This document shows positions 723 to 59,636 of a DNA stretch of 64,000 nt, in pieces. The DNA lies in the IMG/VR virus record IMGVR_UViG_3300037067_001811, positions 1 to 64,000 of that record. The stretch is one strand, 5' to 3'. The notes under the pieces are model-generated. The model saw only the letters and a program-made list of their open reading frames with translations. It was not told the origin of the DNA and did no database searches. A program made the position numbers and the translations under genes. How positions within the stretch are numbered: position 1 is the first letter of the stretch; each line of letters starts with the position of its first letter. Source of the DNA: a virus. Taxonomy: Duplodnaviria; Caudoviricetes.

Positions 723-2378
723 ATGGGTTTCCCAAAGTACGCACGAGCTAGGGTCACTAACGCGACTGTCAACCAAGCTAATTGGGAGGACATTCGTGCG
801 AAGGCTTGCGTACCCTCACCCTCCTTTGAGCTTAGGAAAGCTTCTCAGGTTGTACTCCAGCAGTATGATCCTGGGCAGTACCTCCTCTCTCACTGCACCA
901 TCATCGCTTCGGTCGATAGTGAAGCTCCGACTGGGATGCCTACGGGCAAGCAGATGTTTGATGGTGTGCAGATTGACCGTAAGTACCCAGACTTCTACAT
1001 TACTACTGGGACCACCAAGTACATCAATAACAACAATGATGCTTGGGAGAGAAAGTTACTTCTCGCGTCTTTTCGCACGTTCATTGGTGGTGAGAACTAC
1101 GTTGAGCATATTCAAATCCCAGAGCTGTCTAAGGGCAAGATCATCGATGCCGCAGCTAGGGATATTGGAGATTCAGTTTACGTAGACATCCTGATTGCTA
1201 CCGACCGGAAGCACAAGGAGCTCATAGCTGCGATCTTAGATGGGACCCTCAGCACCCTCTCTATGGGGTGTCATGTTTCGTTCACAGTCTGTACTAAGTG
1301 CGGGAACGTAGCTGAGGATGAGACTCAACTCTGCCGTCACATTAAGTATGAGAAGGGTCAGTGGTTCGTTGATCCTTCTGGGGTGCGCCGGAAGATTGCT
1401 GAGCTGTGTGGCCACGTCAATGTAGAGCCCGGTTCAGTAAAGTTCATCGAGGGGTCTTGGGTAGCTAACCCAGCCTTCGTTGGAGCTGTCCTCAATAAGA
1501 TTCTGGACCCGAAGACTGCCCTATTAGCTGATGCAGCTAGGCAGAAGATTCAGGTTGCCTTCTCTCGTCCCATTGAAGTTTTTGACGTCAATGCGATGCA
1601 GAAGGCTGCACGGTTTGCCCCGAAGCCAGGTACTGGATACAAGGCTGTCCCAGGGGATCACCTAGCCTACCTCTATGATGGACCTTCCTTAGGGAGTCTC
1701 AAGGTGCCACCAGCTTTCTCTGGGAGTGAGAGAGCAGCTCAGGCTCTTGAGGATAGGCTTTCTCAGATTGATAGGACCTCTGAGGAAGACTTCCCGGGAG
1801 AGTCTGATCTAGCCCCTGCTCCAAGTGCAGCACCTGAGGAAAAGGATCACCCCTTTAAGAAGACCATCGATGACCTCTACAACTCGATAGTTCAAGAGGT
1901 TACTAAGAAGGTCAAGAAGGACTTAGAGGACGCAGGTAAGGATGGAGAGCAGTCCACATTAGACCCAAACAAGTCTAATGAGTCTCTCATCAAGTCTGCT
2001 CTACGGTACCCCAAGTGGGTGACTCAAGCTAAGGTAGTGACTGCTAATATCAAAGACACTAACATTGCAAAAAGTGTGTTAGCTGGCTTGATTCTACATG
2101 ACCTGGGTGGGTGGGAAGCAGTTGCTCAGGCAAAAAGATTTAGCGGACGTGAGATTCTTGTTATGTGTCGTCTTCTGGAGAGGGCAACTAAGAAGTCCTC
2201 TTCCGCAGGTGACACTCGGATGTACATGACCGTTATCGCAGTAGGCGGAACGGGACCATATCCAAATGTAGATGATTACCTTACTGCTTGTAGTGAGGTA
2301 ATGGGACGAACCCCAATAGTTTCCGAGAGAGCTCAACTGATCGAAAAAGGTAAGTTGTTCTCCCTCGGTACCCGATGA
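723..2378 (+). CDS. Prohead (capsid maturation) protease with Zn-binding insertion
   Basis: HK97-type protease pattern: NYVEH (His), TLSMGC (Ser), FIEGSWVANPA; CTKCG..LCRH; lies directly upstream of scaffold and capsid genes. Confidence 0.75.
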   Translation: MGFPKYARARVTNATVNQANWEDIRAKACVPSPSFELRKASQVVLQQYDPGQYLLSHCTIIASVDSEAPTGMPTGKQMFDGVQIDRKYPDFYITTGTTKYINNNNDAWERKLLLASFRTFIGGENYVEHIQIPELSKGKIIDAAARDIGDSVYVDILIATDRKHKELIAAILDGTLSTLSMGCHVSFTVCTKCGNVAEDETQLCRHIKYEKGQWFVDPSGVRRKIAELCGHVNVEPGSVKFIEGSWVANPAFVGAVLNKILDPKTALLADAARQKIQVAFSRPIEVFDVNAMQKAARFAPKPGTGYKAVPGDHLAYLYDGPSLGSLKVPPAFSGSERAAQALEDRLSQIDRTSEEDFPGESDLAPAPSAAPEEKDHPFKKTIDDLYNSIVQEVTKKVKKDLEDAGKDGEQSTLDPNKSNESLIKSALRYPKWVTQAKVVTANIKDTNIAKSVLAGLILHDLGGWEAVAQAKRFSGREILVMCRLLERATKKSSSAGDTRMYMTVIAVGGTGPYPNVDDYLTACSEVMGRTPIVSERAQLIEKGKLFSLGTR

Positions 2379-2387
2379 AGCTTTTAT
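2376..2387 (+). promoter_or_regulatory. Putative phage late promoter motif (TGAAGCTTTTAT)
   Basis: One of about 10 aligned copies upstream of genes (see findings). Confidence 0.5.
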
Positions 2388-2421
2388 ACGCCTACTCGAT
2401 AGCAAGAAAGGGATCACATCC

Positions 2422-3771
2422 ATGACCCGCGAGCGCAGTACCTGGAACATCAACCATATCGCCAAGCAGGCGGGTCTCAAGGTTGCCGACCCGTACACCA
2501 TGAACAACCCCGAACACGCTCAGCAGCAGCCCGCCGCTGATGCTTACGTGATCGGAGACCCTTCGGACTTCGCTGAGGACGTTCACCCCTCGGCTGGTAC
2601 TTGGGAGTCGGAGTACTCAGGTGGTCAAGTCAAGAGGAATGAGATCGGGATGCCGGAGATGAGGGGTGATACCTTCAACCATCCTGAGAAGACTGCCTCT
2701 AAAGAGGTTCTCACCAAGAAGGCTGCCCTCTGTGTAGCCATCGCCCGTGCCATCCTCCCCAAGACTGCTTCGAACGTTGACGTTGAAGAGCAGTCCATCT
2801 CTTTCATGCACCTCCCCGATTCCGAGGTCATGTCGACCTATACTCGCCTTGCTTCACAGCAAGAGGATCAGGGTCAGCAGGATGAAGGTCAGAAGCAAGC
2901 TCAGGATCAGCAAGCTCAGGCTCAGCAGGATCAGGAGAAGCAGGCTGGTAAGATCCCTCCTCAGTTCCTCGAGAACGTCAAGAAGAAGCAAGAGGAAGCC
3001 AAGGACGGCGACAAGGATCAGGGCAAGCAAGCTCAGGATCAACAGGAGCAGGATCAGGGCAAGCAGGATCAGGGCAAGCAAGCTCAAGATCAGCAGGATC
3101 AGCAGCAGGTTCAGGCTGCTCAGCAGGATCAGCAGGCTCAGGGCCAAGACGTTCAGGCAGCTATGCAGCAGCAACTGGCTCAGTTGATCCAGCAGGCTCA
3201 GCAACAGCTTCAGCAGTTGGCTGGTCAGCAGCAACAGGCTCCTCAGGTTCAGGTTGCTCAGATGCAGCAACAGAGTGCGGCTCAGCAGGTTGCTCAGGCA
3301 GTTCAGCAAGCCGTCGCTCAGGGTCAGGATCCAGTTGAGGCTTGTGCAAAAGCAATGGCACAGGGTCAGCAGATTCAGCAGCAGGGTAATGATGGTGAGC
3401 TCATCGATCAGATGTTGGCTCAGCAGACCCAGCAGCAGTCTCCAATGGCCAACATGGACATCGAACTCGACACTCCCACTATGGATGTCGGCGAAGTTCA
3501 ACTCGGGCCAGAGGACGACATGCTTCGTTCGCTGTTCGCTAATGATGAGACTCAGCAAGCTGAGCAGGCCCAAGATGGTGGCCAGCAGAAGCAAGCTCAC
3601 GCCGTCCGCACTGCCTCAACGAGGACAGTGGGTACGATTCCAACCCAGGGTGTCAGTCGTATCGGTGGAGGCTCAACAGCTTCTTCAACTGGTTCTGGTG
3701 ACAAACTGGCTTCCATCTGGAGTTCAGCTCCAGACGTAAGGGAAGCATTCGGCATCCCCACTAATCGTTGA
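2422..3771 (+). CDS. Capsid scaffolding protein, Q-rich
   Basis: Lies between protease and capsid genes; low-complexity Q/A/D-rich, helical; many KxA motifs; SD-like AAGGGA. Confidence 0.7.
   Translation: MTRERSTWNINHIAKQAGLKVADPYTMNNPEHAQQQPAADAYVIGDPSDFAEDVHPSAGTWESEYSGGQVKRNEIGMPEMRGDTFNHPEKTASKEVLTKKAALCVAIARAILPKTASNVDVEEQSISFMHLPDSEVMSTYTRLASQQEDQGQQDEGQKQAQDQQAQAQQDQEKQAGKIPPQFLENVKKKQEEAKDGDKDQGKQAQDQQEQDQGKQDQGKQAQDQQDQQQVQAAQQDQQAQGQDVQAAMQQQLAQLIQQAQQQLQQLAGQQQQAPQVQVAQMQQQSAAQQVAQAVQQAVAQGQDPVEACAKAMAQGQQIQQQGNDGELIDQMLAQQTQQQSPMANMDIELDTPTMDVGEVQLGPEDDMLRSLFANDETQQAEQAQDGGQQKQAHAVRTASTRTVGTIPTQGVSRIGGGSTASSTGSGDKLASIWSSAPDVREAFGIPTNR
2857..3440 (+). repeat. Low-complexity CAG-rich repeats (QDQGKQAQ units) in the scaffold
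   Basis: Repeated caggatcagggcaagcaagctcag units. Confidence 0.85.
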
Positions 3772-3906: not shown

Positions 3907-4536
3907 ATGCCCATGTACGGACAAAGCTCGGGTGACTTCAGGGAAACTAGTGGTCGTGTTCAGTTGTTCCATGTTGTAACCCGCAATTCTGTGGGTGCCT
4001 TGGCAGCAGACGCTTTCACTCAGCTCAACCCTGCGCTCATCACAGCTGCAGCAGCAAAAAGCACGACCCTAGCCAGCATCACCAAGGTTGGTGTTCTCGG
4101 AGGATCGGTTGCTTTCACCCGACCCTCAGGCAACAACCTCATCGGTGGACCGCCTGGAACCCCGGGTGCGCACAACACCAACCTCACCAACCTCGTCACT
4201 GGTGCAAGGCCCCTCGGCATCTTCATCAATGACGCAGCTGGCAATGCCTACGAGAATACTCCCGGACCAGCTTCTGGTCGTGGACCGTACGTCTCGGGCT
4301 CAGGTTCCTGTGTGGGTGTGTCCATCTACGAAACTCAGAGCCAAGCCACGGATGCAAACCTGACTTGGGCTGTTGGAAACCTTGTGTACGCAAGTGCAAA
4401 CGGTCTCCTCACTAACCTCATCGCAGAGGCTTACGAGTACTTGGCGGGAAGTACTACAACCGTAACCGTGATCGGCGTTGTCAAGGCAGTTCCGAACTCC
4501 GACACCCCCATGCTCGTGATCGATCTTCGGATCTGA
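3907..4536 (+). CDS. Capsid decoration/cement protein
   Basis: Immediately upstream of the MCP; G/A/T-rich beta protein with GNLVYASANGLLT and VIGVV; SD AGGAG. Confidence 0.6.
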   Translation: MPMYGQSSGDFRETSGRVQLFHVVTRNSVGALAADAFTQLNPALITAAAAKSTTLASITKVGVLGGSVAFTRPSGNNLIGGPPGTPGAHNTNLTNLVTGARPLGIFINDAAGNAYENTPGPASGRGPYVSGSGSCVGVSIYETQSQATDANLTWAVGNLVYASANGLLTNLIAEAYEYLAGSTTTVTVIGVVKAVPNSDTPMLVIDLRI

Positions 4537-4562: not shown

Positions 4563-5432
4563 ATGGTATCCAACGAAATTAAGCAGCAGATCATCAGTGA
4601 GTACATCAAGACCGCAGCTGGCCGAGCCAAGCTTGCAGCCTCGATGATTCAGCCTCTTCGTCTTCGAAGGGATTACACGGCTGTGGGTCGTAAGACCTTC
4701 CTCGTGGAGCAACTTCCCGACGGAGCACTCCCGATCTACGACAAGGATCCCGATGTCACCGCCTACGTGGTTGGTGAAGAGGGTGAAAACATCCTTGCCA
4801 TCCAGAAGCCCCGTAGGGTCATCTTCCCGTTGTTCGAGATTGCCTCGAACCCCGAGATCCCCCTCACCCAGATCAAGGAGCGTCGCTTCGATCTGATCGA
4901 GCGTGCTCAGGATTTGGCGAAGGCTCAGATCCAGGCTGCTGAGGACGAGCGTGTGTTTGCGGTTCTGGACAGCATTGCTGTCTCGGGCTTCGACACCCTC
5001 CCCCAGACGAACCCCGACATCAACGTGGTTGCTCCAATCAGCCCAAGCGTCCTAGCGGATGCCTTTGCTGAGGTGGAACGTCACGACCTCCGCGTTGCCA
5101 GGATCTACATGAATGCGACGGACTATGCGGATATCCGCAAGTTCGGTCGTGACATCCTGGACATCGAGAGCCAAGCCGTTCTACTCAAGACTGGTCTGCA
5201 AGCGAACCTCTGGGGCGCTCAGATCATCACGAGTCGTTTGGTTCCTGCTGGCTTCGTGTACATCGCGGCGGAGCCTGAGAACTTCGGTCGCTTCCCGGTC
5301 CGTACGGAGTTGACGGTGCTTTCGGCCGACGACCCTAAGGCGAGGACGATTGGGTTCAGCTGCTTTGAAAATGTCGGCATAGGCGCATTCAACCCACGTG
5401 GACTTACACGTCTGCTTGTTACTCGCGTCTAA
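4563..5432 (+). CDS. Major capsid protein (HK97 fold)
   Basis: GRAKLAASMIQPLR..DY..VGRKTFLVEQLPDGALPIYDKD N-terminus typical of large-myovirus MCPs; strong C-ending codon bias; followed by a terminator-like hairpin. Confidence 0.85.
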   Translation: MVSNEIKQQIISEYIKTAAGRAKLAASMIQPLRLRRDYTAVGRKTFLVEQLPDGALPIYDKDPDVTAYVVGEEGENILAIQKPRRVIFPLFEIASNPEIPLTQIKERRFDLIERAQDLAKAQIQAAEDERVFAVLDSIAVSGFDTLPQTNPDINVVAPISPSVLADAFAEVERHDLRVARIYMNATDYADIRKFGRDILDIESQAVLLKTGLQANLWGAQIITSRLVPAGFVYIAAEPENFGRFPVRTELTVLSADDPKARTIGFSCFENVGIGAFNPRGLTRLLVTRV

Positions 5433-5518: not shown

Positions 5519-5546
5519 TTGACACCTCAAAACTTCATGGTACGGT
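5519..5546 (+). promoter_or_regulatory. sigma70-like promoter giving a leaderless mRNA
   Basis: TTGACA-16 nt-TACGGT with TG extension; ATG 5 nt downstream. Confidence 0.6.
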
Positions 5547-5551
5547 TTAGC

Positions 5552-6487
5552 ATGAAGCTCGTACCTTGTCCAATCTCTGAAGCTGAACTCCGAACTTTAT
5601 ACCTGGAGACCAAGCTTACAGATTCCGAAATCGCTACTCAGGTGGGTTGCCCTCTGAAACATATTCGTCGATGGCGACACCGTTGGGGAATTGAGACTAT
5701 CTGCCGTACTGAACGACACGAGGTATTGCCAATTGAGGGTCGACTTCGATCTGTTCTTGTGGGTTCAATGCTTGGGGATGGTAGGATCTCAAAGAGCACT
5801 CATGTTGCTCGTTACATGGAGAACCATGCTGAGGATCAGAGGGACTACTTGGAGTGGAAGAGTAAGGAATGGGGTTCTTGGGTTCAACTAGGGTTGAGGC
5901 CCGTAACCTGGACTCTTCAAGGTGAAGAGTATGATGGGTGGAGATTTGAGACTGTTTCTCATTCAATTATGCTCTCATGGCATGAGTTGTTCTACCCAGA
6001 TCCAGGACCAAAGCAGCTTCACCCTCAAGTGGTAGACCTAGTTGATACTCTCGCTCTTGCGATCTGGTTCATGGATGATGGGTCATCTGGGTGGTGGCCT
6101 CGCATTACCTTTGGTATGAGACCTGAGAGCCGGGAGGTAGCTATAGCTATTCTCCGTAAGTTTAATCTCAACCCTAAGTGGGACCTGAAGAAGGATCCAA
6201 CGGGAGAGTTCATCTTCGAGGGTGAGGATCAGGCTCACCTTTTCATATCTTTGGTGAAGCCACATATGCCTGAGTGTATGCTCCACAAGCTTAACTTCGG
6301 GTTTCAGGGTGAGCAGTATCAGATCCGTCAAGTCTTGACTGAAGGAGTACTGAGAGAGTTAGCTTCTAAGGGGGTACCCATCAAAAGGATGGCCAAGATG
6401 CTAGGGGAGTCTACTACTACTGTCGATCGTCACCTTAAGAAGCATGGGATCGAGCACCCGAGGAAAGTTGGGCGACCTTCGACTTGA
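5552..6487 (+). CDS. Free-standing LAGLIDADG homing endonuclease with N- and C-terminal HTH
   Basis: VLVGSMLGDG and LAIWFMDDG motifs; start moved from the ORF-track TTG (5519, which is the -35 box) to ATG 5552. Confidence 0.85.
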   Translation: MKLVPCPISEAELRTLYLETKLTDSEIATQVGCPLKHIRRWRHRWGIETICRTERHEVLPIEGRLRSVLVGSMLGDGRISKSTHVARYMENHAEDQRDYLEWKSKEWGSWVQLGLRPVTWTLQGEEYDGWRFETVSHSIMLSWHELFYPDPGPKQLHPQVVDLVDTLALAIWFMDDGSSGWWPRITFGMRPESREVAIAILRKFNLNPKWDLKKDPTGEFIFEGEDQAHLFISLVKPHMPECMLHKLNFGFQGEQYQIRQVLTEGVLRELASKGVPIKRMAKMLGESTTTVDRHLKKHGIEHPRKVGRPST

Positions 6488-6582
6488 AGCCAGTAGTTCT
6501 TAGTTTTGACTCATCGGTCATACCGGGAACCTACTGAAACTTTCTTCTACTGCCAAGTAAACGTTCCATGCTAACCTAGGGT

Positions 6583-8886
6583 ATGTCCGAACTTACGGAG
6601 CCTGAGCTTCGAAGGCTGTACCTTGAAGAGGGTCTACCTGAATCCAAGATTGGACTCCTCTACGGGTTGAGTCAGAGGCAAGTGAATCTTCGACGTTCGA
6701 AGTATCAGATCCCAACTATTCAGAAGGCAGATCGACTGAAACTTCCACCTCTAACACCTATACAGCGATCCCTACTTCTGGGTTCATTGTTAGGGGATGC
6801 GGGACTGACGTCTCGTAGTAATTGTACTTCCAGCCTTTGTGAGTATCACTCGGATAGTCAGCAAGAGTATCTCGAGTGGAAAGCTAGTCTTTGGGGCGCT
6901 CACCTTTGCTCGATTAAGCCAGCAAGATCAGTAAAGGGAGGGGTAGTTTATACAGGGTCTCGGATGACTACTCATAGTTCTCGGGACTTGTACACTTATT
7001 GGTTACAGGCTTACCCAGATAAGTCTGGGAATAAGTCATTCTCTGGGTTGGATCTATCTGACTTTGACGCCTTCTCACTAGCTGTATGGTTCTTAGATGA
7101 TGGATCAAAAACTTCTAATGGATATGTTCGCTTCTCCGTTTCACCAAGACCTGAGGACCAACAAGTCCAACTCTGCTTGTTGAGGAGGTTCGGACTTACT
7201 CCTGTAGTACACAAGAATCCAGACCCTGATATATGGCTTCATGACCGGGGAAGTGTCACTAAGTTCCTAGATCTAGTTGGTCCTCATATTCCAAGTTCCA
7301 TGGGTTACAAGTTAGAGTTGGTCCCTAGAACCCGAGGTTTGCTTCCTACTGAAGTCCTGGAAGCTAGGCTTAGTGAGTATGTTGAACAGGGGCGCAACCT
7401 AGAGTGGATCTCTCAAGCAACGGGATCCTCATTTGATTCCGTTCGTCGAATGGTCAAGAGGGACGGGTTGAGGGTCCAACCTTCAGTGTCCACACCTACT
7501 TGGGATGAAGCTAAGGACTTGGTTAGATCAGGAACTCAGGGTGAGGACTTGGTTGAGTTGCTAACCTCTATCGGGTTACCACCCTCTCCTTCAGAGTCAG
7601 ATGTTACTCGTGACTTTGACAACTTGTGCGCTCGAACCTTAGCTACCCTGACAGATGGTGTTATTGAAGGTGGGGGTAGAGTAGGGCTGACTGTCTGCCA
7701 GGCTGCTTTTCCTCACCGAATTGAAGCTACTAATGGCCAACAAGAATCCCTTGCAAGGGCTTGGTTCAACCCAGAGATGATTCGGAGGGCTATAGCTTTT
7801 CAAGTTAGGGTTGGGGACCCTCTTTACCCAATGAATGTGTTTAGGGCCCTTCGAGCCATAGTGATGACTCCTTCCAACTTTCGACCCGCAGTTGCCAAGA
7901 GGTTGGTTGAAGAGTTCTCTCCAGAGGGCGGGGTTATTTTGGACCCTTGTGCCGGTTACGGAGGCAGAGCTGTAGGGGTTCTTGCAGCTGGGCGTAGGTA
8001 CATTGGAGCAGATCCTCACCCCAAAGCTGAAGCTTCCTTCCAAATACTTCGCCAATCGTTGAATAGAGATCTGACTTTCTACAATCAACCGTTTGAGGAG
8101 GTTGATCTAGGCGATCTACAGGCTGATTTAGTACTTACTAGTCCGCCCTACTTTTCTGCTGAACGATACGCTAATGACCCTACTCAAAGTTGGGTTCGGT
8201 ATCCAACTTGGGACCTTTGGTTGAGTAGGTTTCTTTCAGTACTCCTGGCTAAGTCGTTCAATCATCTAGCCCCTGGGGGTAGGATGCTTCTCAATGTTGC
8301 GGATGTTCAAGTAGAGGGTAAGTCCTATCCCTTGGTTAGTGAGTCAATCAGGTTAGCTGAGTCTGTGGGTTTCCTTTATGGGGGATCCATCGCTATGAGG
8401 CTGGCTTCGTTTGGTAGTCGACGAAGAGAGGAGCCAATCCTAGTTTTCTTGAAGCCTGGGGGGTCATGTCAGATCCCTCGCTACATACTACCGAGGGCTC
8501 CTTTACCCTCTGAGGCATGTACTACGAAGATTTCTGGCCTGACAGAGGAGGCTCTTAGAGCCTTGTATGAGGTTGATCTTCTCACTGATGCAGAGATTGG
8601 TAAGCGGTTCGGAACTTCGGACGTACTGATCTCTCAACAACGAAAGCGATGGGGGATTACCACTCTCAGCTTCACTCAAAGGAGTGCCAGGGCATTCGGG
8701 AGCTTGTCCCTTGGGGACTTGACTAAAGACAAGCTTTCAGAGTTGTACCTGAAGAATAGTGATGACCAGATAGCTAGGTTGTACAGTGTTTCTAAGGTAG
8801 CGATTCGAAATCTTCGTCACAAGTGGGGGGTTGAGACAATCTCGAAGACCATCAGGGCTCAGAGTGGGTGCTATCGAAAGACCTGA
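6583..8886 (+). CDS. LAGLIDADG endonuclease fused to an amino (m6A/m4C) DNA methyltransferase, with HTH repeats
   Basis: LLGSLLGDA and LAVWFLDDG; then SNFRP, ILDPCAGYGGR (SAM motif I) and DLVLTSPPYF (motif IV); HTH-like repeats at both ends. Confidence 0.85.
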   Translation: MSELTEPELRRLYLEEGLPESKIGLLYGLSQRQVNLRRSKYQIPTIQKADRLKLPPLTPIQRSLLLGSLLGDAGLTSRSNCTSSLCEYHSDSQQEYLEWKASLWGAHLCSIKPARSVKGGVVYTGSRMTTHSSRDLYTYWLQAYPDKSGNKSFSGLDLSDFDAFSLAVWFLDDGSKTSNGYVRFSVSPRPEDQQVQLCLLRRFGLTPVVHKNPDPDIWLHDRGSVTKFLDLVGPHIPSSMGYKLELVPRTRGLLPTEVLEARLSEYVEQGRNLEWISQATGSSFDSVRRMVKRDGLRVQPSVSTPTWDEAKDLVRSGTQGEDLVELLTSIGLPPSPSESDVTRDFDNLCARTLATLTDGVIEGGGRVGLTVCQAAFPHRIEATNGQQESLARAWFNPEMIRRAIAFQVRVGDPLYPMNVFRALRAIVMTPSNFRPAVAKRLVEEFSPEGGVILDPCAGYGGRAVGVLAAGRRYIGADPHPKAEASFQILRQSLNRDLTFYNQPFEEVDLGDLQADLVLTSPPYFSAERYANDPTQSWVRYPTWDLWLSRFLSVLLAKSFNHLAPGGRMLLNVADVQVEGKSYPLVSESIRLAESVGFLYGGSIAMRLASFGSRRREEPILVFLKPGGSCQIPRYILPRAPLPSEACTTKISGLTEEALRALYEVDLLTDAEIGKRFGTSDVLISQQRKRWGITTLSFTQRSARAFGSLSLGDLTKDKLSELYLKNSDDQIARLYSVSKVAIRNLRHKWGVETISKTIRAQSGCYRKT

Positions 8887-9444: not shown

Positions 9445-9564
9445 ACAAGGCTCTGTTTTAGGGACTATTAGCCAACTTGTGTAGTTACTTGGGTAAACTA
9501 AGGCACCACGTAGAGTGTGCCTTCAGATCCTAATAAATCAGAATCAGAAGGAAGTCGTATTACC

Positions 9565-9921
9565 ATGACCAAGACTCAGCTCATCAATGCCGTCGCCGCC
9601 GAGATGGAAAACACCACCAAGACTCACGTCCGAGCCTTCCTCGAGGCAGTGACTACGGTTGCAGGTAAGACCCTCAAGAAGGAGGGCAAGTTTGTCCTTC
9701 CTGGTGTGGTCAAGTTCGTGTTGGTTAAGGTTCCGCCGAAGGCTGCTCGTACAGCTAGGAATCCTGCCACTGGTGCTGCCATGACGGTTCCTGCAAAGCC
9801 CGCTTCGAAGAAGCTCAAGGCTCGTTTCCTCAAGGCCATCAAGGTCGATACTGGCGTGATCATTCCTGAGAGTAAGCCCGCCGTCGCCAAGAAGGCCTCG
9901 AAGAAGGCTGCGAAGGAGTAA
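9565..9921 (+). CDS. hup: HU family DNA-binding protein with K/A-rich tail
   Basis: MTKTQLINAVA...ARTARNPATG...VPAK; SD AAGGA upstream of ATG 9565. Confidence 0.9.
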   Translation: MTKTQLINAVAAEMENTTKTHVRAFLEAVTTVAGKTLKKEGKFVLPGVVKFVLVKVPPKAARTARNPATGAAMTVPAKPASKKLKARFLKAIKVDTGVIIPESKPAVAKKASKKAAKE

Positions 9922-13119: not shown

Positions 13120-13488
13120 ATGACAAATCCACTCCAAGAGTATCAGGACACCCTTCTTGTGCAACGTGTTGCAGCCAAGGGTGCTGCCCCTAAGTGGGAC
13201 CGATCTAAGGTCAGGGGGTGGATGACCAAAGAGGTAGTTAATCATGTTGATCGTAAGACCGACGAGGTGAATACTACTTCTTTGGCGGAGGCAGCAGCTT
13301 CTGAGTTCAACGTCTACGAGGACACTAGGGACTACAAGATCCCTGATGACTTGTTTGACCTGTCGACTCAGGTTGGGGAAGCATGGGAGAAGAAGAACAA
13401 GAGGGCTGCTACTGGTGATCAAGAGGCAGCTTACTATGTTCGGTTGGCGATGATGGGGAAGGTACCCACCCCTAGTGGGGATGAATGA
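13120..13488 (+). CDS. Hypothetical protein (possible internal head protein)
   Basis: LVQRVAA N-terminal motif; SD AGGT. Confidence 0.6.
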   Translation: MTNPLQEYQDTLLVQRVAAKGAAPKWDRSKVRGWMTKEVVNHVDRKTDEVNTTSLAEAAASEFNVYEDTRDYKIPDDLFDLSTQVGEAWEKKNKRAATGDQEAAYYVRLAMMGKVPTPSGDE

Positions 13489-43399: not shown

Positions 43400-43403
43400 T
43401 AGT

Positions 43404-50173: not shown

Positions 50174-50276
50174 GTCCCAATTATCTGTTGTAAAATCAAC
50201 ACTTTACAGCAAGATTCGAACTTAGTAATTGACAGGGCCCACTTTGGTAGTATCCATACCGAAGTGGGCCCTTGTC

Positions 50277-52187: not shown

Positions 52188-52240
52188 CCGCTAAATCTCT
52201 TGTAGGCTCACTAGGGGTGTACGTAGTACTAGGAAGTCCC

Positions 52241-55200
52241 ATGTTGACTAAGAACACTCCTCGAGTAGCGGTAGACGAAGCTGATGACGTAGAGGTTGGG
52301 GAGTTTCAGGTAGCGGAGTATATCATCTTCCTACTTGCTCTGGATACCTACGAGCGGTACGCAGAAGAGTCTTCTGGTGTTGATGATACCGAAGATGTTC
52401 TGATTAAGAAGGGCCTTCGGATCCTTCGAATGGCAGATTCTCAGATTGATGCCTACCGGGAGTTCCTGGAGAGTCATCTGACTAAGCCTGGTCAGATAGC
52501 GATGCTCCGCAAGGCGATGAACTTGAAGGTGTTCAATCCGGCGGGTGCAGCCCGGAGGGCCTTGCACTTCAGGACTATCCTTACTCGAGGTGGGACTGCA
52601 ACGGTCAAGGGGATCTTAGCCAACCCGAAGTATGTCAGGCAAGTGAAGCAGGCCATAGCCGCTTCCATGTTGGATGATGCGGACAAGGCTCTTGATGTGT
52701 TTGCAGCTATCCCGCTGCTCAACATCCGAATGCGTGACTGGATTGATGATGCTGCAAAGCAAGCTGGGTCGGGTGAATCTGCCCCCTTACCTGTGGACAA
52801 TGCTTCTAATGAAATAGGAGCTTCTGATGAGATCACTAAGGCGGGCATCCAAGAGGTTGCAGCTGTTGGATCAGAGGCGATTCAAGACGAGCAGAACTCC
52901 CGGTCTTTGATGCTTGCTAAGGTTGAAGAAAATGCAACCAAGGCAGCTGTGAAGTCTTTGGAGATCAACAAGAAGACGGACGCCCCTCCGAAGAAGTCTG
53001 AGGTTGTAGGTATTGCTACGGCCGCCGCAGTGGCCGCCATTAGTGACCCCACCCTCTTACAGAACATCCCAGTACCTCTCCAGGGACTAGATGCAGAGCA
53101 ACGAGCAGCTGCTCTTACAGGGGGTCGAGTTCGAGTGGCTGCTGGTGCTGGTAGCGGTAAATCCACTACCTTGATAGCTCGCATTGAGTACCTCATCAAA
53201 GACTTGAAGGTCAATCCAGCTCGGATTATGGCTTGCTCTTTCAATAAGAAGGCAGCCGACGAGTTGAAGGAGAAGATTGCAGGGAAGGTTGGGAGTGACG
53301 GATCTTCAGGGGTTCAAGTGGGCACTATGCACGCCCTCTTTGCCAAGTTAATTGTTGGCACAAGGGACACCCCTGGATTCGGTAATCAAGAAGAGCAGGC
53401 AATGCTCCGACCTCCTAGGTTGATTGCTCCGCCTAAGAAGGGGTACAGGTCAATCAGTCCTGTAAGCCTTTCTCAGACTATCAGGAATATGTGGGTTGAG
53501 TGTGGGGCAGATGCAATAGCCTCTAGGTATGGGTACAGTAAAGAGTGGGTCGCAGAACCTCCGAAGGCTAAGAAAGCAGGACTTCTTCTTAATGCGTGGA
53601 GGGGTAACGATATCTCTCTAGATGAGGCCAAGAAGTCTGTAACCTCTAAGGCAGAAGCTCAAGCTGCGGTTTGGTACGACATGTACTTAGGGCTCAAGGG
53701 GGACACTCCAGGGTGGAAACCTCCTTGTTCAAGCTCCAAGCCCTACAGCAACTTCATGTTCAAGAATCGTAAGGGCAATGAGCGCCTAGGTGATCTTGAT
53801 GACATGCTCAAGATCATTCGAGACATCCTGAAGAGGGATCCGAAGGCTAAGCAAGTTATCCAAGGGATGTTTGACCACATTCTTGTTGATGAGGCTCAGG
53901 ATCTCAATACGGTTCAGCACCAAGTGTTTGGGATGCTCTCAGAACATATCCCTCAGGACTCCAAGGATAAGTCCATTTGGATGGTTGGTGATGAGAAACA
54001 AGCCATCTATCAGTTCCGAGGTGCTAAACCCGAACTCTTCCAGGGTTTAGATGAGGGTTGGACTGTTAGGAATATCCGAACCAACTATCGTTGTCAGCCT
54101 GAGATCGTGGAAGCTGCCAATAATCTCATTGACCATGATAGTGACGGGACCGTTGTAGCTTCCCAATCGGATCCACGAAAGGATAGAGGGAGAGCATCTA
54201 TCCAAGTCAACCTTCCCGAGTCCAATGTTGAGGCTGCTATCGATACCATTGGTCGATACAGTAAGGACATTGACGAGGGTGCTGCGACAGAGAACTTTGC
54301 GGTCCTAGCTCGAACTAATGCTGAGTTGAACGACTTCGAGACAGCTTGTATCATCAATGAGATCCCTTATGTTCGTAGGGGTGGTAAAGGGTTCCTTGAG
54401 GCTCCAGAGTCTCGAGCTCTACTGGGGTACATCGACCTAGCGATGGGTAATGACTACGAGAAGATGAAGGGATCTCTCGTAGCTATTCTGACAAAGCCAG
54501 ATCGTGGTCTATTCCTAGGGCATGAAGCGGTGGAAGAGGCAGTGAGTGAGGCTCTTGATACCTTAGCTCGTCGTGAGAGAGTTGATGTCAAGAGCGTTCG
54601 CCCCGATACTCTACTGGAACCTCGTTATCTGCCTATGTTGGCTGATTGCCTTAAGAGGTCACATCGTCTCAAGATCATCGATTCAGCTAAAGGTGATACT
54701 CGCAAGGGTGAGTACATATACCAAAAGAAGGTTGAGGAATTGGGGGCTAATCTTCGAGGGATAGCTCCTAGTCTTCGAGATCTCAGGGCTTACATTGAAG
54801 AGGGTCACCCGACGGAGGATCTTCTCAATCACGTACTGGACTCCATGACTTCTACAGTCGCCAGTTGGGACTTTGGCTCTAAGTCAACGGTGATGACCAC
54901 GACTACACTTCGTGAGCAGATCACCAATGACATCTCTATCTTTGCAGATGATGATGACGATGAGGAAGATGAAGAGACTAAGGAAGCCCCAGTTGAGGGG
55001 GAGGAAGGCTTGGCGCCTGCTCCAGAGAAGCCCAAGGAACCTAAGGGCTTAGGTGCAGTTCAATTCCTCTTTGAGTTATCGAAGCCTAATCAGCATGATC
55101 AGGAGAACGCAACGGATCCATCCACCTCTCAGGGTTATGTTAAGAAGCTCGCTCGCTACTCGAAGCTAGCGGACACACTTAGGATCGATCCCGACAAGTG

Positions 55201-56479
55201 GGCTAAGAAGCAACTTGAGTTCCCTGAGGGTCAACGTAAGGAGAAGCCTCCTGCTATCACTCTATCGACTGTTCACTGCTCTCCCCCTGATGAGTTGATT
55301 CTAACTACAGATGGGTGGTTTCCAATTGGGAAATTGGACCCCAATAAGCATCGATTAGCTTCTTACCAGAAGAGTTGTAATCAACTCTTCTGGGGGAAGG
55401 GTACTTCTGGGTATGGTTTCAAGATAGGGCACCGTCCGTATAATGGTACTATCCTTACTCTAATTACAGATCAGAGTAAGACAAGGGTAACCCCAGACCA
55501 TAGGGTTATTGCACAGTTCTCAGACACTTTCTTTGAGAAGTATGTTGTCTACCTTATGAGGAGGGGCAGTTGGTGGAGAGTTGGTCACTGTGTCTCGGGT
55601 CATAAGCCATACAAGTCAGGTGGGGTGTCAGGTAGATTAGGTACTGAACAAGCTGACTCAGGGTGGATTCTGAAGGTTTGTGAGACAAAAGAAGAAGCAA
55701 TACAAGCTGAAGCTGTGATTCAAGGCACCTATGGGATCTTAGGGGTAACTTTTGAGGCAGCTAAGAGTAGAACCCTGACTTCAACTCAACTTCATCAGAT
55801 ACACAATTCAGTACGGGATGTTGTGTACCCGAGGGTACTAAGGTTACTTGCGGACTTTGGTTTAGATGAGAACTCCCCACTTTACATAAGGGATAACCAA
55901 GGAGAGCCCCGTAGTACCCTTCAGGGGATGTTTGTAACCAAAGCAAGTAACTTATTGTCTGATTATATGCTTGTTCCGGCCCCTAGCGCTGACTTTATTC
56001 AGCGTAAGGGTTCAGCTGAGCAGAATAGGAAGCCCAACTTACTACCTGTTAAAGTCTCTAGGGAGCCTTACAGGGGTGAAGTATACTCGCTAGATGTACA
56101 GCCTCATCACTTCTATGTTAGCGGTGGGATTGTAGTACATAATTCCGTCAAGGGTGCTCAGTGGAAGAATGTAACTGTGGTGATGCCTAAGGGGTTGTTC
56201 CCGATGGAGCGAAAACCAAGGCCGGATGAGCCACCTCCGGATCCAATCATGGTTGCAGCTCAAATGAAGGCCGAGAGGAATCTGGCTTACGTAGCTTTGA
56301 CGAGAGCTGCTGTGAATCTGGAGATCACTTGTCCAAAGGGTATCAGTCCATTTGTGTTTGAAGCAGGATTGATGATCGGTGAGAACGTACCAAAGCCTGG
56401 TATGGACCAGCAAGAAGAGATCAAGGAGGCCTCTACTCTCTTAGGAGAGTGGGAGATGGCCTACCCGGAGGAGTTCTAA
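52241..56479 (+). CDS. uvrD: UvrD/PcrA-family SF1 helicase with N-terminal extension and intein
   Basis: AGAGSGKS, ILVDEAQD, VGDEKQAIYQFRGA, NYRC, VLARTN, STVH/SVKG, ERNLAYVALTRA. Confidence 0.92.
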   Translation: MLTKNTPRVAVDEADDVEVGEFQVAEYIIFLLALDTYERYAEESSGVDDTEDVLIKKGLRILRMADSQIDAYREFLESHLTKPGQIAMLRKAMNLKVFNPAGAARRALHFRTILTRGGTATVKGILANPKYVRQVKQAIAASMLDDADKALDVFAAIPLLNIRMRDWIDDAAKQAGSGESAPLPVDNASNEIGASDEITKAGIQEVAAVGSEAIQDEQNSRSLMLAKVEENATKAAVKSLEINKKTDAPPKKSEVVGIATAAAVAAISDPTLLQNIPVPLQGLDAEQRAAALTGGRVRVAAGAGSGKSTTLIARIEYLIKDLKVNPARIMACSFNKKAADELKEKIAGKVGSDGSSGVQVGTMHALFAKLIVGTRDTPGFGNQEEQAMLRPPRLIAPPKKGYRSISPVSLSQTIRNMWVECGADAIASRYGYSKEWVAEPPKAKKAGLLLNAWRGNDISLDEAKKSVTSKAEAQAAVWYDMYLGLKGDTPGWKPPCSSSKPYSNFMFKNRKGNERLGDLDDMLKIIRDILKRDPKAKQVIQGMFDHILVDEAQDLNTVQHQVFGMLSEHIPQDSKDKSIWMVGDEKQAIYQFRGAKPELFQGLDEGWTVRNIRTNYRCQPEIVEAANNLIDHDSDGTVVASQSDPRKDRGRASIQVNLPESNVEAAIDTIGRYSKDIDEGAATENFAVLARTNAELNDFETACIINEIPYVRRGGKGFLEAPESRALLGYIDLAMGNDYEKMKGSLVAILTKPDRGLFLGHEAVEEAVSEALDTLARRERVDVKSVRPDTLLEPRYLPMLADCLKRSHRLKIIDSAKGDTRKGEYIYQKKVEELGANLRGIAPSLRDLRAYIEEGHPTEDLLNHVLDSMTSTVASWDFGSKSTVMTTTTLREQITNDISIFADDDDDEEDEETKEAPVEGEEGLAPAPEKPKEPKGLGAVQFLFELSKPNQHDQENATDPSTSQGYVKKLARYSKLADTLRIDPDKWAKKQLEFPEGQRKEKPPAITLSTVHCSPPDELILTTDGWFPIGKLDPNKHRLASYQKSCNQLFWGKGTSGYGFKIGHRPYNGTILTLITDQSKTRVTPDHRVIAQFSDTFFEKYVVYLMRRGSWWRVGHCVSGHKPYKSGGVSGRLGTEQADSGWILKVCETKEEAIQAEAVIQGTYGILGVTFEAAKSRTLTSTQLHQIHNSVRDVVYPRVLRLLADFGLDENSPLYIRDNQGEPRSTLQGMFVTKASNLLSDYMLVPAPSADFIQRKGSAEQNRKPNLLPVKVSREPYRGEVYSLDVQPHHFYVSGGIVVHNSVKGAQWKNVTVVMPKGLFPMERKPRPDEPPPDPIMVAAQMKAERNLAYVALTRAAVNLEITCPKGISPFVFEAGLMIGENVPKPGMDQQEEIKEASTLLGEWEMAYPEEF
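55277..56143 (+). mobile_element. Intein (289 aa) in helicase motif V
   Basis: CSPPDE.ILT.DGW.PI; VTPDH; VYSLDV...HFYVSGGIVVHN, +1 Ser; splicing restores STVHSVKG. Confidence 0.93.
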
Positions 56480-56482
56480 GTC

Positions 56483-57391
56483 ATGGCCGCTACCTATACT
56501 GAGGTGACTCTACCTGAAATGGAGACCTTCCTCAAGAGAGGGTTCCGAGCTCTTCGCCCCAAGCAAGGGTTATACAAAGGGGAGATCTGCTTTGATCTCT
56601 TAGTGAGCCCTACTGTTAGCATCAAAGTACTCACCTCTATTAGACGAAGTGGGGCCCCTACTGGGGTTGGAGAGGATGCCATCAGGGTAATGTTCTGGGG
56701 GGTTAAGGTCGATCGGACGTTAGTTGCTGGGAAAGCACCTATTGTGAAGCGGACTCAGAACTGGAGGAACTCCCTTCAGGACAAGATTGAAGACTACCTT
56801 GAGCTCTATGAGGAGAAGTCTGAGTACTGGGATGTTCGAGGTGCTCAAGAGCCCGGTTCTAAGGGCCCCCCTTGCACCGAAAAACAGGTTAACTTCATCC
56901 TAGGGATGGCTTCTCGAGCTTCAGAAGATCTCTGGGAGAGCACTGAGCTCTCATGGCCCCCGGATAGGGAAGAGGTTGCAAGACTAACCTCTAAGGAAGC
57001 CAGTAAGGTCATTGAGGTCCTACTGGCAGCAGGGTTAGGACGCAGGTACGCTACTGTGGCAATAACTGAGCTCCCAAGCTTCGAAGTAGCGACTGCTAGT
57101 ACAATAGATGAGCTAGCTAGTCAGTTGGAGAATGATCTTCGAGGGAACAAGGATGCTCATGATATAGTGGTCGGGAGGGAAGAGGCCTTATACCGAGCTC
57201 ACGTTCAAGCAGTCCTCAAGTACGGTTGTGAGGGTGGTTGTGAGGGTGGTTGTGAGGGTGGTTGTGAGGGTGGTTGTGAGGGTGGTTGTGATAAGACCGA
57301 GAGTAAGTGTGAGGGTACTTGCGGAGGTACTTGTGATTGCAAGAAGGCAGAGGCAGAAACGTATAGCTACGACTTTACTGGGCCGGTGTAG
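56483..57391 (+). CDS. Mosaic hypothetical protein with chaperone-like segment and Cys-rich tail
   Basis: TEKQVNFI motif; ELASQLE.DLRG.KD.HD segment; CEGG repeats. Confidence 0.7.
   Translation: MAATYTEVTLPEMETFLKRGFRALRPKQGLYKGEICFDLLVSPTVSIKVLTSIRRSGAPTGVGEDAIRVMFWGVKVDRTLVAGKAPIVKRTQNWRNSLQDKIEDYLELYEEKSEYWDVRGAQEPGSKGPPCTEKQVNFILGMASRASEDLWESTELSWPPDREEVARLTSKEASKVIEVLLAAGLGRRYATVAITELPSFEVATASTIDELASQLENDLRGNKDAHDIVVGREEALYRAHVQAVLKYGCEGGCEGGCEGGCEGGCEGGCDKTESKCEGTCGGTCDCKKAEAETYSYDFTGPV
57224..57291 (+). repeat. 12-bp tandem repeat (ggttgtgagggt) x5.7
   Basis: Perfect tandem copies encoding GCEG. Confidence 0.95.
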
Positions 57392-57400
57392 TCTTCCTCG

Positions 57401-58246: not shown

Positions 58247-58252
58247 CTAGTT

Positions 58253-58423
58253 GTGAACTCACTGTTGGTACGCACCCTCCCTGTTGACACCCTAGTAGAC
58301 TTGGAAGACCCTGATATCCCTCGGTCACCTCCAATGCCTAACTTCCAACGGGAGAGGGATACCATCCCCTGTCCACCACCTTCTCATGTGGAGGGGTACC
58401 TGGAAGAGGATTCGCTATCGTGA
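58253..58423 (+). CDS. Small Pro-rich acidic peptide (56 aa)
   Basis: Fills the intergenic gap: MNSLLVRTLPVDTLVDLEDP...RDTIPCPPP. Confidence 0.35.
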   Translation: MNSLLVRTLPVDTLVDLEDPDIPRSPPMPNFQRERDTIPCPPPSHVEGYLEEDSLS

Positions 58424-58451
58424 ATCTTGTTGTAGGCCTTCTTCTTAGTAG

Positions 58452-59636
58452 ATGGCTAAGCTGGTCACGGTCGCAACCGATGGATTTCGAGACTACGTTT
58501 CCCTTCCAGGGGGGCGTCAGATCAATCTCGGATCAATATCGGTATTGAAGTTGGTCACCTCCTTAGTGAAGGGGGTCAACCCTTGTCGACGAGCTTTGAA
58601 CGCCTTCCTAAAAAATAGGCAAGTAGTCATCTCGGTGGACCTAGAGGAATTGGAAGACCTACTGAAGCCGAAGAGGTCTCGATGGGCCTGCCATGATGAT
58701 CTGTTTATCCCAAATGGTTTTCGTCAACTTGTTAGAGGCACTAGCATGAACCCAGAGACATCCCAAGCTGAAGCGATCAACCAGAAGATTGCAGCAATCG
58801 AAGAGGGGTTAGACCTTCTTGATAAAGCTGCAACTGAACATGCTAGTGAGGGTGAGGTTGCTGGCTTAGTTGCCTCCTTATCTAGTTTGGTCTCCGATTT
58901 AGGCAGTGATTCTATTGAGAAGACTGCTGCTGTTGATAAGGACTTGATGCAGGAGTTGCTCCTTTTCATGGAGAATGAAGACTCCATCTTCAACCAGAAG
59001 GAAAGCATCATCAAGAACATCATGCGCAAGAAGAAGCGTGGTGTTTATGATCCTTCCCTTGCCCCCAAGCTTTGGCTGTACTGGGTTGATAACGGAGCGG
59101 TAGCTTACGTTAAGAAGGGGGGCATCAATACCCCGGGGAAGAAGTACTTCCCTATTGAACTCCGTAGGGCATTGGCAGAGCAGATTGCCAAGAGTGAAGA
59201 GAAGATGATTGAGGATGGTGATTACAGCTCAATCAAGGTAGCTGGGGATGAGCAGGATCAGGGTCAAGTTGATCAGGTCCAGGGAAAAGAAGCTGGTGAG
59301 GACAAGGATGAAGGCGAGGACAAGAAGAAGTCCCTACCCCCTTGGTTAGAGAAGAAGGAAGCTTCTACCCCTGTTTACTACAAGCTCGCTGCTGCGGATG
59401 TACCTGTTATCAACGAAGCCCTTGCCCATTCGGTCATGGCTAAGATCGATCTAGCTCTTGGAGTGGTAGATACCAGCACCAAGAAGAACGCTCATCTGGC
59501 TAAGAGTGACCTGAATAAGATTAGCAGCCAGCTTTCAACGCTTATTACAGGTGCGGATCTTGGAGACCCGACTCTCTGTACTCCTCTCAAGGAGTTGGCC
59601 GTGATGGCCGATAAGATTCACACACATTTCAGCTGA
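58452..59636 (+). CDS. Multidomain protein with KxA-flanked modules (possible head-cargo polyprotein)
   Basis: EKTAA-[ELLLFMEN...YD..LAPKLW]-IKVAG; KEAG, KEAS, KLAA; LPPWLEKK. Confidence 0.7.
   Translation: MAKLVTVATDGFRDYVSLPGGRQINLGSISVLKLVTSLVKGVNPCRRALNAFLKNRQVVISVDLEELEDLLKPKRSRWACHDDLFIPNGFRQLVRGTSMNPETSQAEAINQKIAAIEEGLDLLDKAATEHASEGEVAGLVASLSSLVSDLGSDSIEKTAAVDKDLMQELLLFMENEDSIFNQKESIIKNIMRKKKRGVYDPSLAPKLWLYWVDNGAVAYVKKGGINTPGKKYFPIELRRALAEQIAKSEEKMIEDGDYSSIKVAGDEQDQGQVDQVQGKEAGEDKDEGEDKKKSLPPWLEKKEASTPVYYKLAAADVPVINEALAHSVMAKIDLALGVVDTSTKKNAHLAKSDLNKISSQLSTLITGADLGDPTLCTPLKELAVMADKIHTHFS

Follow-up and report, generated by a model that had tools for sequence, protein, structure and literature searches.

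The capsid maturation protease of phage T4 follows the code L/I-x-E, and that of phages phiKZ and SPN3US the code S/A/G-x-E. To our knowledge, proteolytic head maturation in giant phages is understood in these two lineages only (T4; phiKZ/SPN3US), and both are Glu-specific. The present work concerns the head genes of a 64,000-nucleotide stretch of tailed-phage DNA (hereafter the window; positions 1 to 64,000 of IMG/VR record IMGVR_UViG_3300037067_001811, which is a single contig of 92,305 bases). Another signal recurs there in the prohead protease, the scaffolding protein and several modular proteins: Lys or Arg, any residue, then Ala ([KR].A, the dot standing for any residue). Judged from its distribution, [KR].A appears to be a short linear motif under selection in the head module and behaves like a prohead protease cleavage site; most likely, it marks cuts by the phage's own herpesvirus-type capsid protease.

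Protease gp245 of phage SPN3US cuts after A-x-E, at 14 sites in nine proteins (PMC10052503). For the assemblin of pseudorabies virus, the sites YLQA-T and VQA-S were predicted by alignment with other herpesvirus proteases (PMC4498786). For polyvalent proteins, multi-module products encoded next to virion genes, it has been proposed that they are packaged and split into units by proteolysis (Iyer et al. 2017, PMC5512222). Processing of scaffold and internal proteins by a prohead protease is therefore known in principle; the specificity proposed below and its cassette-like use are new. A literature search found no report of a Lys/Arg-x-Ala prohead code, virion mass spectrometry of phage G, the likeliest source, being outside its coverage.

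Major capsid protein (MCP) identities and synteny indicate a huge phage of the phage G lineage, the window being its head–tail module. The MCP (4563–5432) shares 84% identity with its counterpart in a 485-kb uncultured phage, 48% with that of Tunturiibacter phage Tunturi_5, 38.5% with gp27 of Bacillus phage G and about 29% with the MCPs of Bxz1-type mycobacteriophages; the whole contig is syntenic with two complete relatives of 435 kb and 512 kb, both with terminal repeats. A megablast search of the head module against phage records gave no match. All sizeable open reading frames (ORFs) of the window lie on the + strand. The gene order ORF1, protease, scaffold, decoration protein, MCP is the same in the window and in all related loci, and in the relatives a portal-sized gene lies upstream of this cluster, so that the protease gene stands between the portal and the scaffold/MCP genes. 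The genes in question are listed below with their candidate sites; the modular genes are named in the text by their first base.

1–720, + strand: ORF1, 5′-truncated, 239 amino acids (aa), adjoining the protease gene on its upstream side; candidate sites K85 KEAS (253–264), R112 RGAS (334–345), K148 KNAG (442–453) and K161 KSAA (481–492).
723–2378, + strand: prohead (capsid maturation) serine protease, 551 aa (phrog_18299 'head maturation protease', E 3e-12); N-terminal flank 1–49, catalytic domain about 50–283 (bases 870–1571), disordered linker, conserved helical C-terminal domain about 415–551; His129 (1107–1109), Ser180 in SMGC (1260–1262) and, after it, a Cys-rich insert (C190, C193, C204); candidate self-cleavage sites K5-Y-A (735–743), R38-K-A-S (834–845) and K294-A-A (1602–1610).
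2422–3771, + strand: Gln-rich scaffolding protein, 449 aa, with 15 [KR].A sites, between the protease and the decoration/MCP genes; in the N-terminal part K15 KQAG, K20 KVA, K90 KTAS (2689–2700), K99 KKAA, K114 KTAS (2761–2772) and R142 RLAS (2845–2856); then four KQA in the Gln-rich middle, K390 KQA, R396 RTAS (3607–3618), K428 KLAS (3703–3714) and R440 REA.
3907–4536, + strand: probable decoration protein, syntenic with phage G gp26 'capsid decoration'.
4563–5432, + strand: HK97-fold MCP, 289 aa (PF05065, E 1.7e-6; phrog_2522, E 4e-52); N-terminal motif copies K16 KTAA (4608–4619) and K23 KLAA (4629–4640).
12198–13082, + strand: modular head-region protein, 294 aa; K129 KTAT, K198 KAAS, R211 RIAA and K224 KEAS.
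13120–13488, + strand: small protein, 122 aa; R16 RVAA, K20 KGAA and K94/R95 KRAAT.
13485–14330, + strand: SWIM-type Cys/His protein, 281 aa, with a Pro/Gly-rich N-terminal 140 residues; R144 RVAT (13914–13925), with LRTAH ahead of it.
40174–41637, + strand: modular protein, 487 aa; K5 KQA, K128 KTAS, K299 KLAG, K320 KTAA, K407/K410 KSAKVA and K450 KNAS.
41634–42326, + strand: Dps/ferritin-like protein, 230 aa; K54 KAAS (41793–41804) and K59 KTAG (41808–41819).
52217–56479, + strand: UvrD-type helicase with an intein and an N-terminal extension of about 290 residues (phrog_1967 DNA helicase, E 1e-73); K181 KQAG (52757–52768) in the extension and R-V-A near residue 15.
58452–59636, + strand: modular protein, 394 aa, adjoining the tube-like gene 59675 on its upstream side; K112, K125, K157 KTAA (58920–58931), K262 KVAG (59235–59246), K279 KEAG, K302 KEAS and K311 KLAA.

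The original prediction held that tripeptides of this kind punctuate the scaffold and bound domains in other late genes, and all those that it named are present in the respective translations and at the respective coordinates. Counts of [KR].A in each ORF were compared with composition-matched shuffles. The scaffold contains 15 copies against 4.3 expected (z 5.7; reached in 0 of 2000 shuffles), ORF1 eight against 2.8 (z 3.5), 58452 11 against 4.9 (z 3.1), 13120 five against 1.95 (z 2.5), 40174 ten against 6.2 (z 1.7) and the UvrD-type helicase 24 against 17.4 (z 1.8). Over the whole protein, the protease (8 vs 6.9), 12198 (7 vs 6.1), the SWIM-type protein (3 vs 3.2) and the Dps-like protein (3 vs 1.8) are not enriched. 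With 57 ORFs corrected for, the excess still holds in the scaffold, ORF1 and 58452. When residue pairs one apart were all scanned without preselection, K.A came out as the top high-count pair of the scaffold (12 vs 2.7, z 6.4) and was not among the top pairs of all other ORFs pooled.

The sites also have their fourth position in common, and the motif was therefore sharpened to [KR].A[SAG]. The ten ORFs named earlier contain 39 copies of this form against 12.5 expected (3.1-fold, z 8.3), a pooled z that is inflated because the set had been picked by eye for holding the motif. The excess that had been foreseen over tail and endonuclease ORFs was found: the sharper motif is at chance in the endonuclease ORFs (6 vs 5.9), in the tail, sheath and fibre ORFs (24 vs 26.2) and in the remaining ORFs (14 vs 15.2). 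Neither the motif in reverse nor any of the other spacings ([KR]A, [KR]..A, [KR]...A) departs from expectation. The excess persists when residues are shuffled locally over 10 positions (30 vs 6.8, z 9.4, in the window; 35 vs 8.4 in relative G1; 41 vs 9.6 in relatives G3 and G4 together), so local richness in Lys and Ala is no explanation. Orthologues at 30–60% identity have the same pattern of enrichment: it is consistent in ORF1, the scaffold, 12198, 40174, the Dps-like protein and 58452, is not consistent in the whole-length protease or the SWIM-type protein, and is doubtful in the UvrD-type helicase. The MCP body and the tail proteins have no consistent enrichment across orthologues. The decoration protein, used as a negative control, contains no site in the window, and its family is depleted (2 in total vs 9.7 expected).

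Nine scaffold homologues keep the motif at about eight columns, with varying middle residue and neighbours, and in the fast-evolving Gln-rich middle Lys occurs nearly always within KQA. A wider set, from 80 further loci, was reduced to 62 non-redundant scaffolds below 70% identity; these contain the motif 381 times against 77.5 expected, other spacings being at 1.0 times expectation. For 76 scaffolds, [KR].A was counted 953 times against 370.5 expected. There are 12.4 motif copies in each, and 31% of all Lys and Arg residues begin a motif (12% expected). KQA occurs 204 times in this set and KQ followed by another residue 57 times, Ala thus following 78% of KQ dipeptides. In the motif logo, the first position is Lys (73%) or Arg (26%), the second Thr, Gln, Lys or Leu, the third Ala and the fourth Ser, Ala or Gly. 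Ser is the most enriched residue after the motif Ala (3.9-fold in the candidates of the window clade, 4.3-fold in the 76 scaffolds); [KR].A[ST] stands at 6.4 times expectation and [KR].AP at 0.55 times, Pro being avoided at this position. Leu or Ile is mildly preferred two residues ahead of the motif Lys, and [VLI].A as such stands at 0.94 times expectation. Glu codes are not enriched in the 76 scaffolds, either as [LI].E (132 vs 193.6, 0.68-fold) or as [ASG].E (617 vs 636.2, 0.97-fold); set against the [KR].A count, these figures uphold the proposal that the specificity differs from that of the Glu-cleaving systems.

In ORF1, a β-rich domain at the N-terminus is followed by a helical middle, and a Cys4 ribbon lies at the C-terminus. 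Its four [KR].A[SAG] sites compare with 0.5 expected (z 4.8), and four orthologues give z values of 4.7, 1.8, 4.4 and 3.3. Two of the sites are kept in all five sequences with a free middle residue (RGAS, KGAS, RQAS, KKAS, RKAS), and 27 non-redundant family members contain 75 motifs against 20.8 expected.

The catalytic domain of the protease is assigned, from a structural model, to the fold of T4 gp21, the HK97 protease and herpesvirus assemblin. An AF2 model built from 82 sequences had a pLDDT of 77.6, with residues 50–283 mostly above 88. Aligned with VIA-align, model residues 51–283 gave Z-scores of 9.9–7.0 with 35 herpesvirus protease and T4 gp21 entries (root-mean-square deviation 3.2–4.1 Å over 119–147 residues), the next unrelated fold having a Z of 5.5. 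Herpesvirus proteases and T4 gp21 also make up the top 16 Foldseek matches, with weak E-values (0.05–0.24). No match was found in a PDB sequence profile search with the protease alignment at E up to 10, and Pfam gave nothing for the protease, the scaffold, ORF1, 58452, 12198 or 13485. Across 82 homologues, His129 (in VEH), Ser180 (in SMG), His57 and Ser63 never vary, and His164 and His231 hardly do; from this invariance, His129 and Ser180 are the putative catalytic pair. The C-terminal part has no similarity to the scaffold, hence no nested protease/scaffold relation is visible.

A profile search found the protease family in 1658 representative metagenome clusters (355 at E below 1e-30), many of them interrupted by inteins; in one locus (L008, 1920–4703) an intein splits the protease right after SMGC, and many homologues are 900–1900 aa long with 2–5 matched stretches. 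Among 82 diverse full-length homologues, [KR].A is present at residues 5–7 in 80 and at residues 294–296, right after the catalytic domain, in 71; a further copy stands in the stretch from residue 20 to residue 42, in either of two columns. In the model, these three conserved sites lie in segments with a pLDDT below 50. The sharper motif was counted in 74 homologues: it occurs 73 times in the N-terminal flank (16.4 expected), 186 times in the C-terminal part (63.3 expected) and 16 times in the catalytic domain (27.3 expected). A motif depleted in the folded domain and kept in the disordered flanks fits the prediction of self-processing.

The modular proteins link the motif to domain borders. 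Protein 58452 is enriched in the sharper motif across its orthologues (z 5.1, 5.0, 5.4 and 3.6), as is 40174 (z 2.3 in the window; 3.1, 4.7 and 2.2 in orthologues). Residues 20–240, approximately, of 40174 consist of four copies of a unit of about 55 residues (LWKYTDxDGxxFYLPxKxxGxxKSPYTGxSF), followed by further modules; this unit could be a head-interior binding unit. Protein 12198 is not enriched in the window (z 1.5), and its orthologues of 295, 428 and 848 aa have z values of 2.8, 3.7 and 3.4. Protein 13120 has three sharper motifs against 0.4 expected (z 4.4); no orthologue was found in the relatives read, so the evidence for it comes from the window only. In 58452, 40174 and 12198, neither Pfam nor the annotated PHROGs gave a credible domain, and no peptidase or known enzyme domain was found; the only matches of 40174 are a sub-cut-off Rhodopsin_N and two weak unannotated PHROGs (E about 0.004–0.005), and an Atlas search with 58452 gave no usable match.

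The expectation that domain gains and losses would map to the motif is supported in these proteins: the motif marks the ends of modules that have been shuffled, duplicated or terminated, shuffled and duplicated blocks both beginning and ending at it, and 10 of 12 homology-block ends lie no more than 6.5 residues from a site (combined p 0.003). In relative G3, a chimera joins the 58452 block 155–267, which lies between KTAA and KVAG, to the 40174 block 245–299, which ends in KLAG; both blocks are bounded there by motif copies (KTAS, KVAA, KSAG, KTAS; KSAG and KTAS for the 40174 block). The 58452 orthologue of G2 has three tandem inserts with a site ahead of each (KTAG, KEAG, KEAG). In G1, a duplicated module of the 12198 orthologue ends in KQAS/KQAA exactly where the window protein stops (KDKHQ before the stop codon), the presumed cut position KQA-S at this end point being followed by another module, and the homology of 12198 to the 848-aa protein of G3 starts at KTAS and ends at KQAA.

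Short tags resembling D-P-W-K (DPWKA, DDWKV, SDQWKAG, SHWKAE) were seen in relatives (G1_27237, G3_42519, G4_30637, G4_30963), just after motif sites and at the C-termini of head-region proteins. In the window, the DPWK form occurs once, at the C-terminus of the Dps-like protein (PDPWKV, 42300–42326), with looser forms in 10121 (DHWK) and 12198 (DHWE).

The best explanation, and in our view a likely one, is that a prohead protease with a K/R-x-A(S/G/A) signal cuts itself, the scaffold and the modular head proteins. The proposed code would have Lys or Arg at P3, any residue at P2 (often Thr, Gln or Leu), Ala at P1 and Ser, Gly or Ala at P1′. The scissile bond most likely lies between the Ala and the next residue; the cut is placed there because of the same-fold analogies, A-x-E of SPN3US and YLQA-T and VQA-S of pseudorabies virus. 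ORF1, the scaffold, 12198, 13120, 40174, the Dps-like protein and 58452 are well-supported candidate substrates by their sequence pattern, and the SWIM-type protein and the UvrD-type helicase, with one or two conserved sites each, are weak ones. As to the original claim that the protease cuts at K/R-x-A, enrichment, conservation and placement at flanks and borders speak for it, cleavage itself being deduced from them; the motif it described is real, and it had missed both the preference for Ser, Gly or Ala at P1′ and the likeness to herpesvirus assemblin sites.

The analysis itself establishes the enrichment of the motif, its spacing specificity, its conservation, its placement relative to domains and module borders, and the protease fold; cleavage at the motif, its scissile bond, a location inside the capsid and ejection are what we infer from these patterns. 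Inside the prohead, the protease would cut itself in the disordered flanks, near residues 7, 40 and 296, to set the catalytic domain free, and would chop the Gln-rich scaffold at about 15 sites. A conserved cluster of scaffold sites lies 10–60 residues from the C-terminus, and cutting there may release the scaffold from the shell. ORF1, 12198, 13120, 40174 and 58452 would be cut at their module joints. The Dps-like protein would lose an N-terminal piece, as possibly would the SWIM-type protein and the UvrD-type helicase (its N-terminal extension). The N-terminal copies of the MCP may be a trimming site or purely structural: they are kept in all related loci read and also, in the form KSAA/KLAA, in Tunturi_5; in phage G the first copy is lost and the second is RVAL.

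The protease resembles herpesvirus assemblin in its fold (Z up to 9.9 over the catalytic domain) and in its layout, in which a site adjoins the end of the catalytic domain and a linker and another domain come next; conserved sites near the scaffold C-terminus are a further likeness. The proposed code would share with assemblin a small P1 Ala and Ser or Thr at P1′, given the scissile bond deduced here. Unlike the pseudorabies sites, P3 is Lys or Arg (by definition of the motif), not Leu or Val. The protease and scaffold are not fused in the window, each scaffold has about 15 sites as against one or two, and the protease has a Cys-rich insert after SMGC. T4 gp21 likewise shares the fold (5jbl, Z 8.8), and the proposed logic, a P3-x-P1 code with a scaffold cut up, a protease trimmed and internal head proteins processed, is that of T4 gp21, phiKZ gp175 and SPN3US gp245. 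Sequence similarity to these three is undetectable (no Pfam, no PDB sequence match), their P1 is Glu, whose codes are not enriched in scaffolds of the window type, and the shared N-terminal capsid-targeting leader of T4 has no counterpart in the window. Like polyvalent proteins, the modular proteins are multi-module and adjoin virion genes; polyvalent proteins, however, usually contain their own peptidase domain (zincin-like MPTase) and recognisable enzyme modules, none of which was found in 58452, 40174 or 12198, and here the cutting is proposed to occur in trans, by the prohead protease.

Several points weigh against cleavage by the prohead protease as proposed. Both MCP copies lie within an invariant stretch and could be structural. 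The conserved KYA of the protease (residues 5–7) precedes Arg, Asn, Lys or Asp, not Ser, Gly or Ala, and therefore may be structural or serve another purpose. The catalytic residues come from invariance, not from residue-level superposition, and the virion location of the Dps-like protein, the helicase and the modular proteins is an assumption for this phage. The helicase and the SWIM-type protein show no enrichment. The large z values overstate significance because homologues are not statistically independent, and the sharper motif was partly shaped on the same proteins in which it was then counted. In the literature covered, no measured cleavage was found for this phage or its relatives.

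Slightly less than an even chance is given to a narrower reading, in which the code is real and serves the assembly machinery only (the protease flanks, scaffold, ORF1 and repetitive modular proteins), the UvrD-type helicase, the SWIM-type protein and perhaps the Dps-like protein being cytoplasmic late proteins that are neither packaged nor ejected. The original prediction had named the helicase as motif-bounded cargo, and this was not borne out: the sharper motif has a z of 2.2 in the window and 2.0 in the G2 orthologue (69% identical), and orthologues below 40% identity are not enriched (0.0 in G1, 1.1 in G4). Several copies lie within conserved helicase motifs (EQRAAAL, RVRVAAG), and the one or two conserved sites lie in the N-terminal extension. 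Nor did the SWIM-type protein turn out to be motif-rich, its three copies matching the 3.2 expected. No shared N-terminal loading leader was found in this contig ([KR].A is present in the first 12 residues of 3 of 69 ORFs, vs 6.0 expected), alike N-termini being limited to the protease (MGFPKYARARV) and 40174 (MIDPKQALLARV), and nothing in the window bears on ejection. Against this narrower reading, all three proteins keep some sites in their orthologues. The Dps-like protein (PF00210, 24.4 bits, just below the 24.5 cut-off, E 3e-5; phrog_3636 'DNA binding protein', 1.5e-8; phrog_858, 2.9e-6) consists of a conserved N-piece (IWQDPxxY...HGPPYLP), the KAAS/KTAG sites and a four-helix domain, and in 4 of 4 orthologues one to three sites, in shifting, non-identical columns, separate the N-piece from the ferritin fold (sharper-motif z 2.4, 0.8, 3.1 and 3.0). 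In 4 of 4 orthologues, the SWIM-type protein keeps a site (RVAT, RVAT, RVAA, KVAA) where its low-complexity N-part meets the conserved domain, with a second site in 3 of 4, both ahead of the domain. The helicase keeps AAKQAGS/AAKAAGS in its extension in 3 of 4 (the window, G2 and G1). Ferritin-like and HU/IHF-like proteins were reported by particle proteomics of phage G, together with many replication proteins (PMC12484599); this is weak support for packaging, because the preparation also held those replication enzymes.

The N-piece of the Dps-like protein (residues 30–55, approximately) resembles a degenerate copy of the 40174 unit. Right after the Dps gene lies a gene for an actin/ParM-like ATPase (42365–43399), the position of which is kept in G1, G2 and G4; it has no motif enrichment. 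The gene of an HU/IHF-like DNA-binding protein with an Ala/Lys/Pro-rich tail (phrog_379; 9517–9921) separates the MCP region from the genes of the modular head-region proteins; the low-complexity tail holds the motif copies of this protein (KPAS, KKAS, KKAA), and its composition may account for them.

It is improbable that the motif is not cut at all and acts as a docking peptide (for the scaffold, the portal or the shell interior) or as a Lys-modification site marking head-interior proteins. All the evidence consists of conservation and position, which a binding motif would also give; the near-invariant protease KYA, with no preference for Ser, Gly or Ala at the next position, and the MCP copies in their invariant N-terminal stretch would suit such a role. 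A docking motif would not be expected in about 12 copies per scaffold and in every repeat unit, or where proteins naturally end and duplicated or shuffled modules have their borders, or to be depleted specifically in the folded domain of the protease. Moreover, the P3-x-P1 layout parallels the codes of same-fold proteases, A-x-E of SPN3US (PMC10052503) and x-A-S/T of herpesviruses. Hardly credible is a functionless artefact of Gln/Lys/Ala-rich low complexity or slippage-amplified tandem repeats: four scaffold KQA do lie in short Gln-rich repeats (GKQAQDQ twice, QKQAQDQ, EKQAGK) and the copies of the HU-like protein are owed to its tail, but the excess persists in local shuffles, is absent for other spacings and stays after repeat-derived copies are removed, which largely refutes this explanation, and most conserved scaffold sites lie outside repeats, repeat units that differ between lineages yet keep KQA, and the motif is present in the non-repetitive protease flanks of 82 diverse homologues.

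Cleavage of the protease, scaffold and modular proteins at K/R-x-A is also suggested by the pattern in cultured relatives. Phage G (gp19–gp21), Tunturi_5 (gp331–gp332) and mycobacteriophage Catera (gp93–gp94) have a homologous MCP and a protease with SMGC and a Cys-rich insert, and in all three K-x-A-[SA] copies flank the catalytic domain and fill neighbouring scaffold-like proteins. Phage G gp19 has KTAA and KIAP ahead of the catalytic domain and KVAS and KIAS after it; the Tunturi_5 protease has KTAN and KTAA ahead and KVAS after. The motif is in excess in the scaffold-like gp332 of Tunturi_5 (20 vs 7.7 expected), in its gp328 (25 vs 13.1), annotated as a DNA ejection protein and preceding the 59675 homologue, which is the position of 58452 in the window, and in Catera gp94 (12 vs 4.8) and gp93 (11 vs 4.1). 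Unlike that of the window, the proteases of these relatives are short (300 and 287 aa) or fused to a C-terminal part of about 1100 residues (Catera). The protease module of an Erwinia jumbo phage, 25% identical, shows no motif excess; the code therefore belongs to this clade and does not extend to the superfamily as a whole. In Catera, the protease forms the N-terminal 220 residues or so of a 1369-aa protein (locus L036, 6872–10981), annotated as gp94 or hypothetical, with KTAG right after the catalytic domain; the fusion resembles the protease-plus-scaffold of herpesviruses.

It is doubtful, although conceivable, that K/R-x-A-S is a general 'joint' for building, duplicating and swapping cassettes of internal head proteins (including the Dps-like protein, the SWIM-type protein and perhaps the UvrD-type helicase) in phage-G-type and Bxz1-type phages. 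Such proteins would be packed as precursors, cut inside the capsid by the assemblin-type protease and delivered with the DNA.

Other features of the window were seen alongside the head genes. Seven free-standing ORFs of homing-endonuclease type, which served as negative controls for the motif, are dispersed in the late operon, and several are absent from the relatives. They are found in the following regions.

5519–8886, 11425–12165, 18798–19718, 34073–35590, 43374–44039 and 50229–52187: homing-endonuclease-type ORFs (LAGLIDADG, one fused to a methyltransferase; GIY-YIG; HNH; others).

The product of 36308–38929 (873 aa) contains an intein insert of about 420 aa (Cys...HN-Cys, HNH match) that is missing in its 449-aa orthologues, and the insert in the UvrD-type helicase is of the Hint type (C...VVHNS). 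A 302-aa protein (56483–57391) has near its C-terminus six CEGG repeats (GCEGGCEGGCEGGCEGGCEGGCEGGC), followed by further Cys-rich sequence. A fibre-like protein of 1544 aa (20430–25064) contains about eight tandem repeats of about 100 residues with paired His motifs (DHKH..., SDHTH...); H.H is the top pair at this spacing in the non-scaffold ORFs (25 vs 7.8 expected).

If the proposed cleavage is true, an Ala-specific code, predictable from sequence, in the phage G lineage would constitute a third specificity class of prohead proteases. It would tie these enzymes closer to the herpesvirus assemblins in the choice of substrates as well as in fold. As the pattern is present in three cultured relatives (phage G, Tunturi_5 and Bxz1-type mycobacteriophages), the code is immediately testable, and the mature protein boundaries and the head-interior proteins of uncultured huge phages would become predictable from metagenomic sequence.

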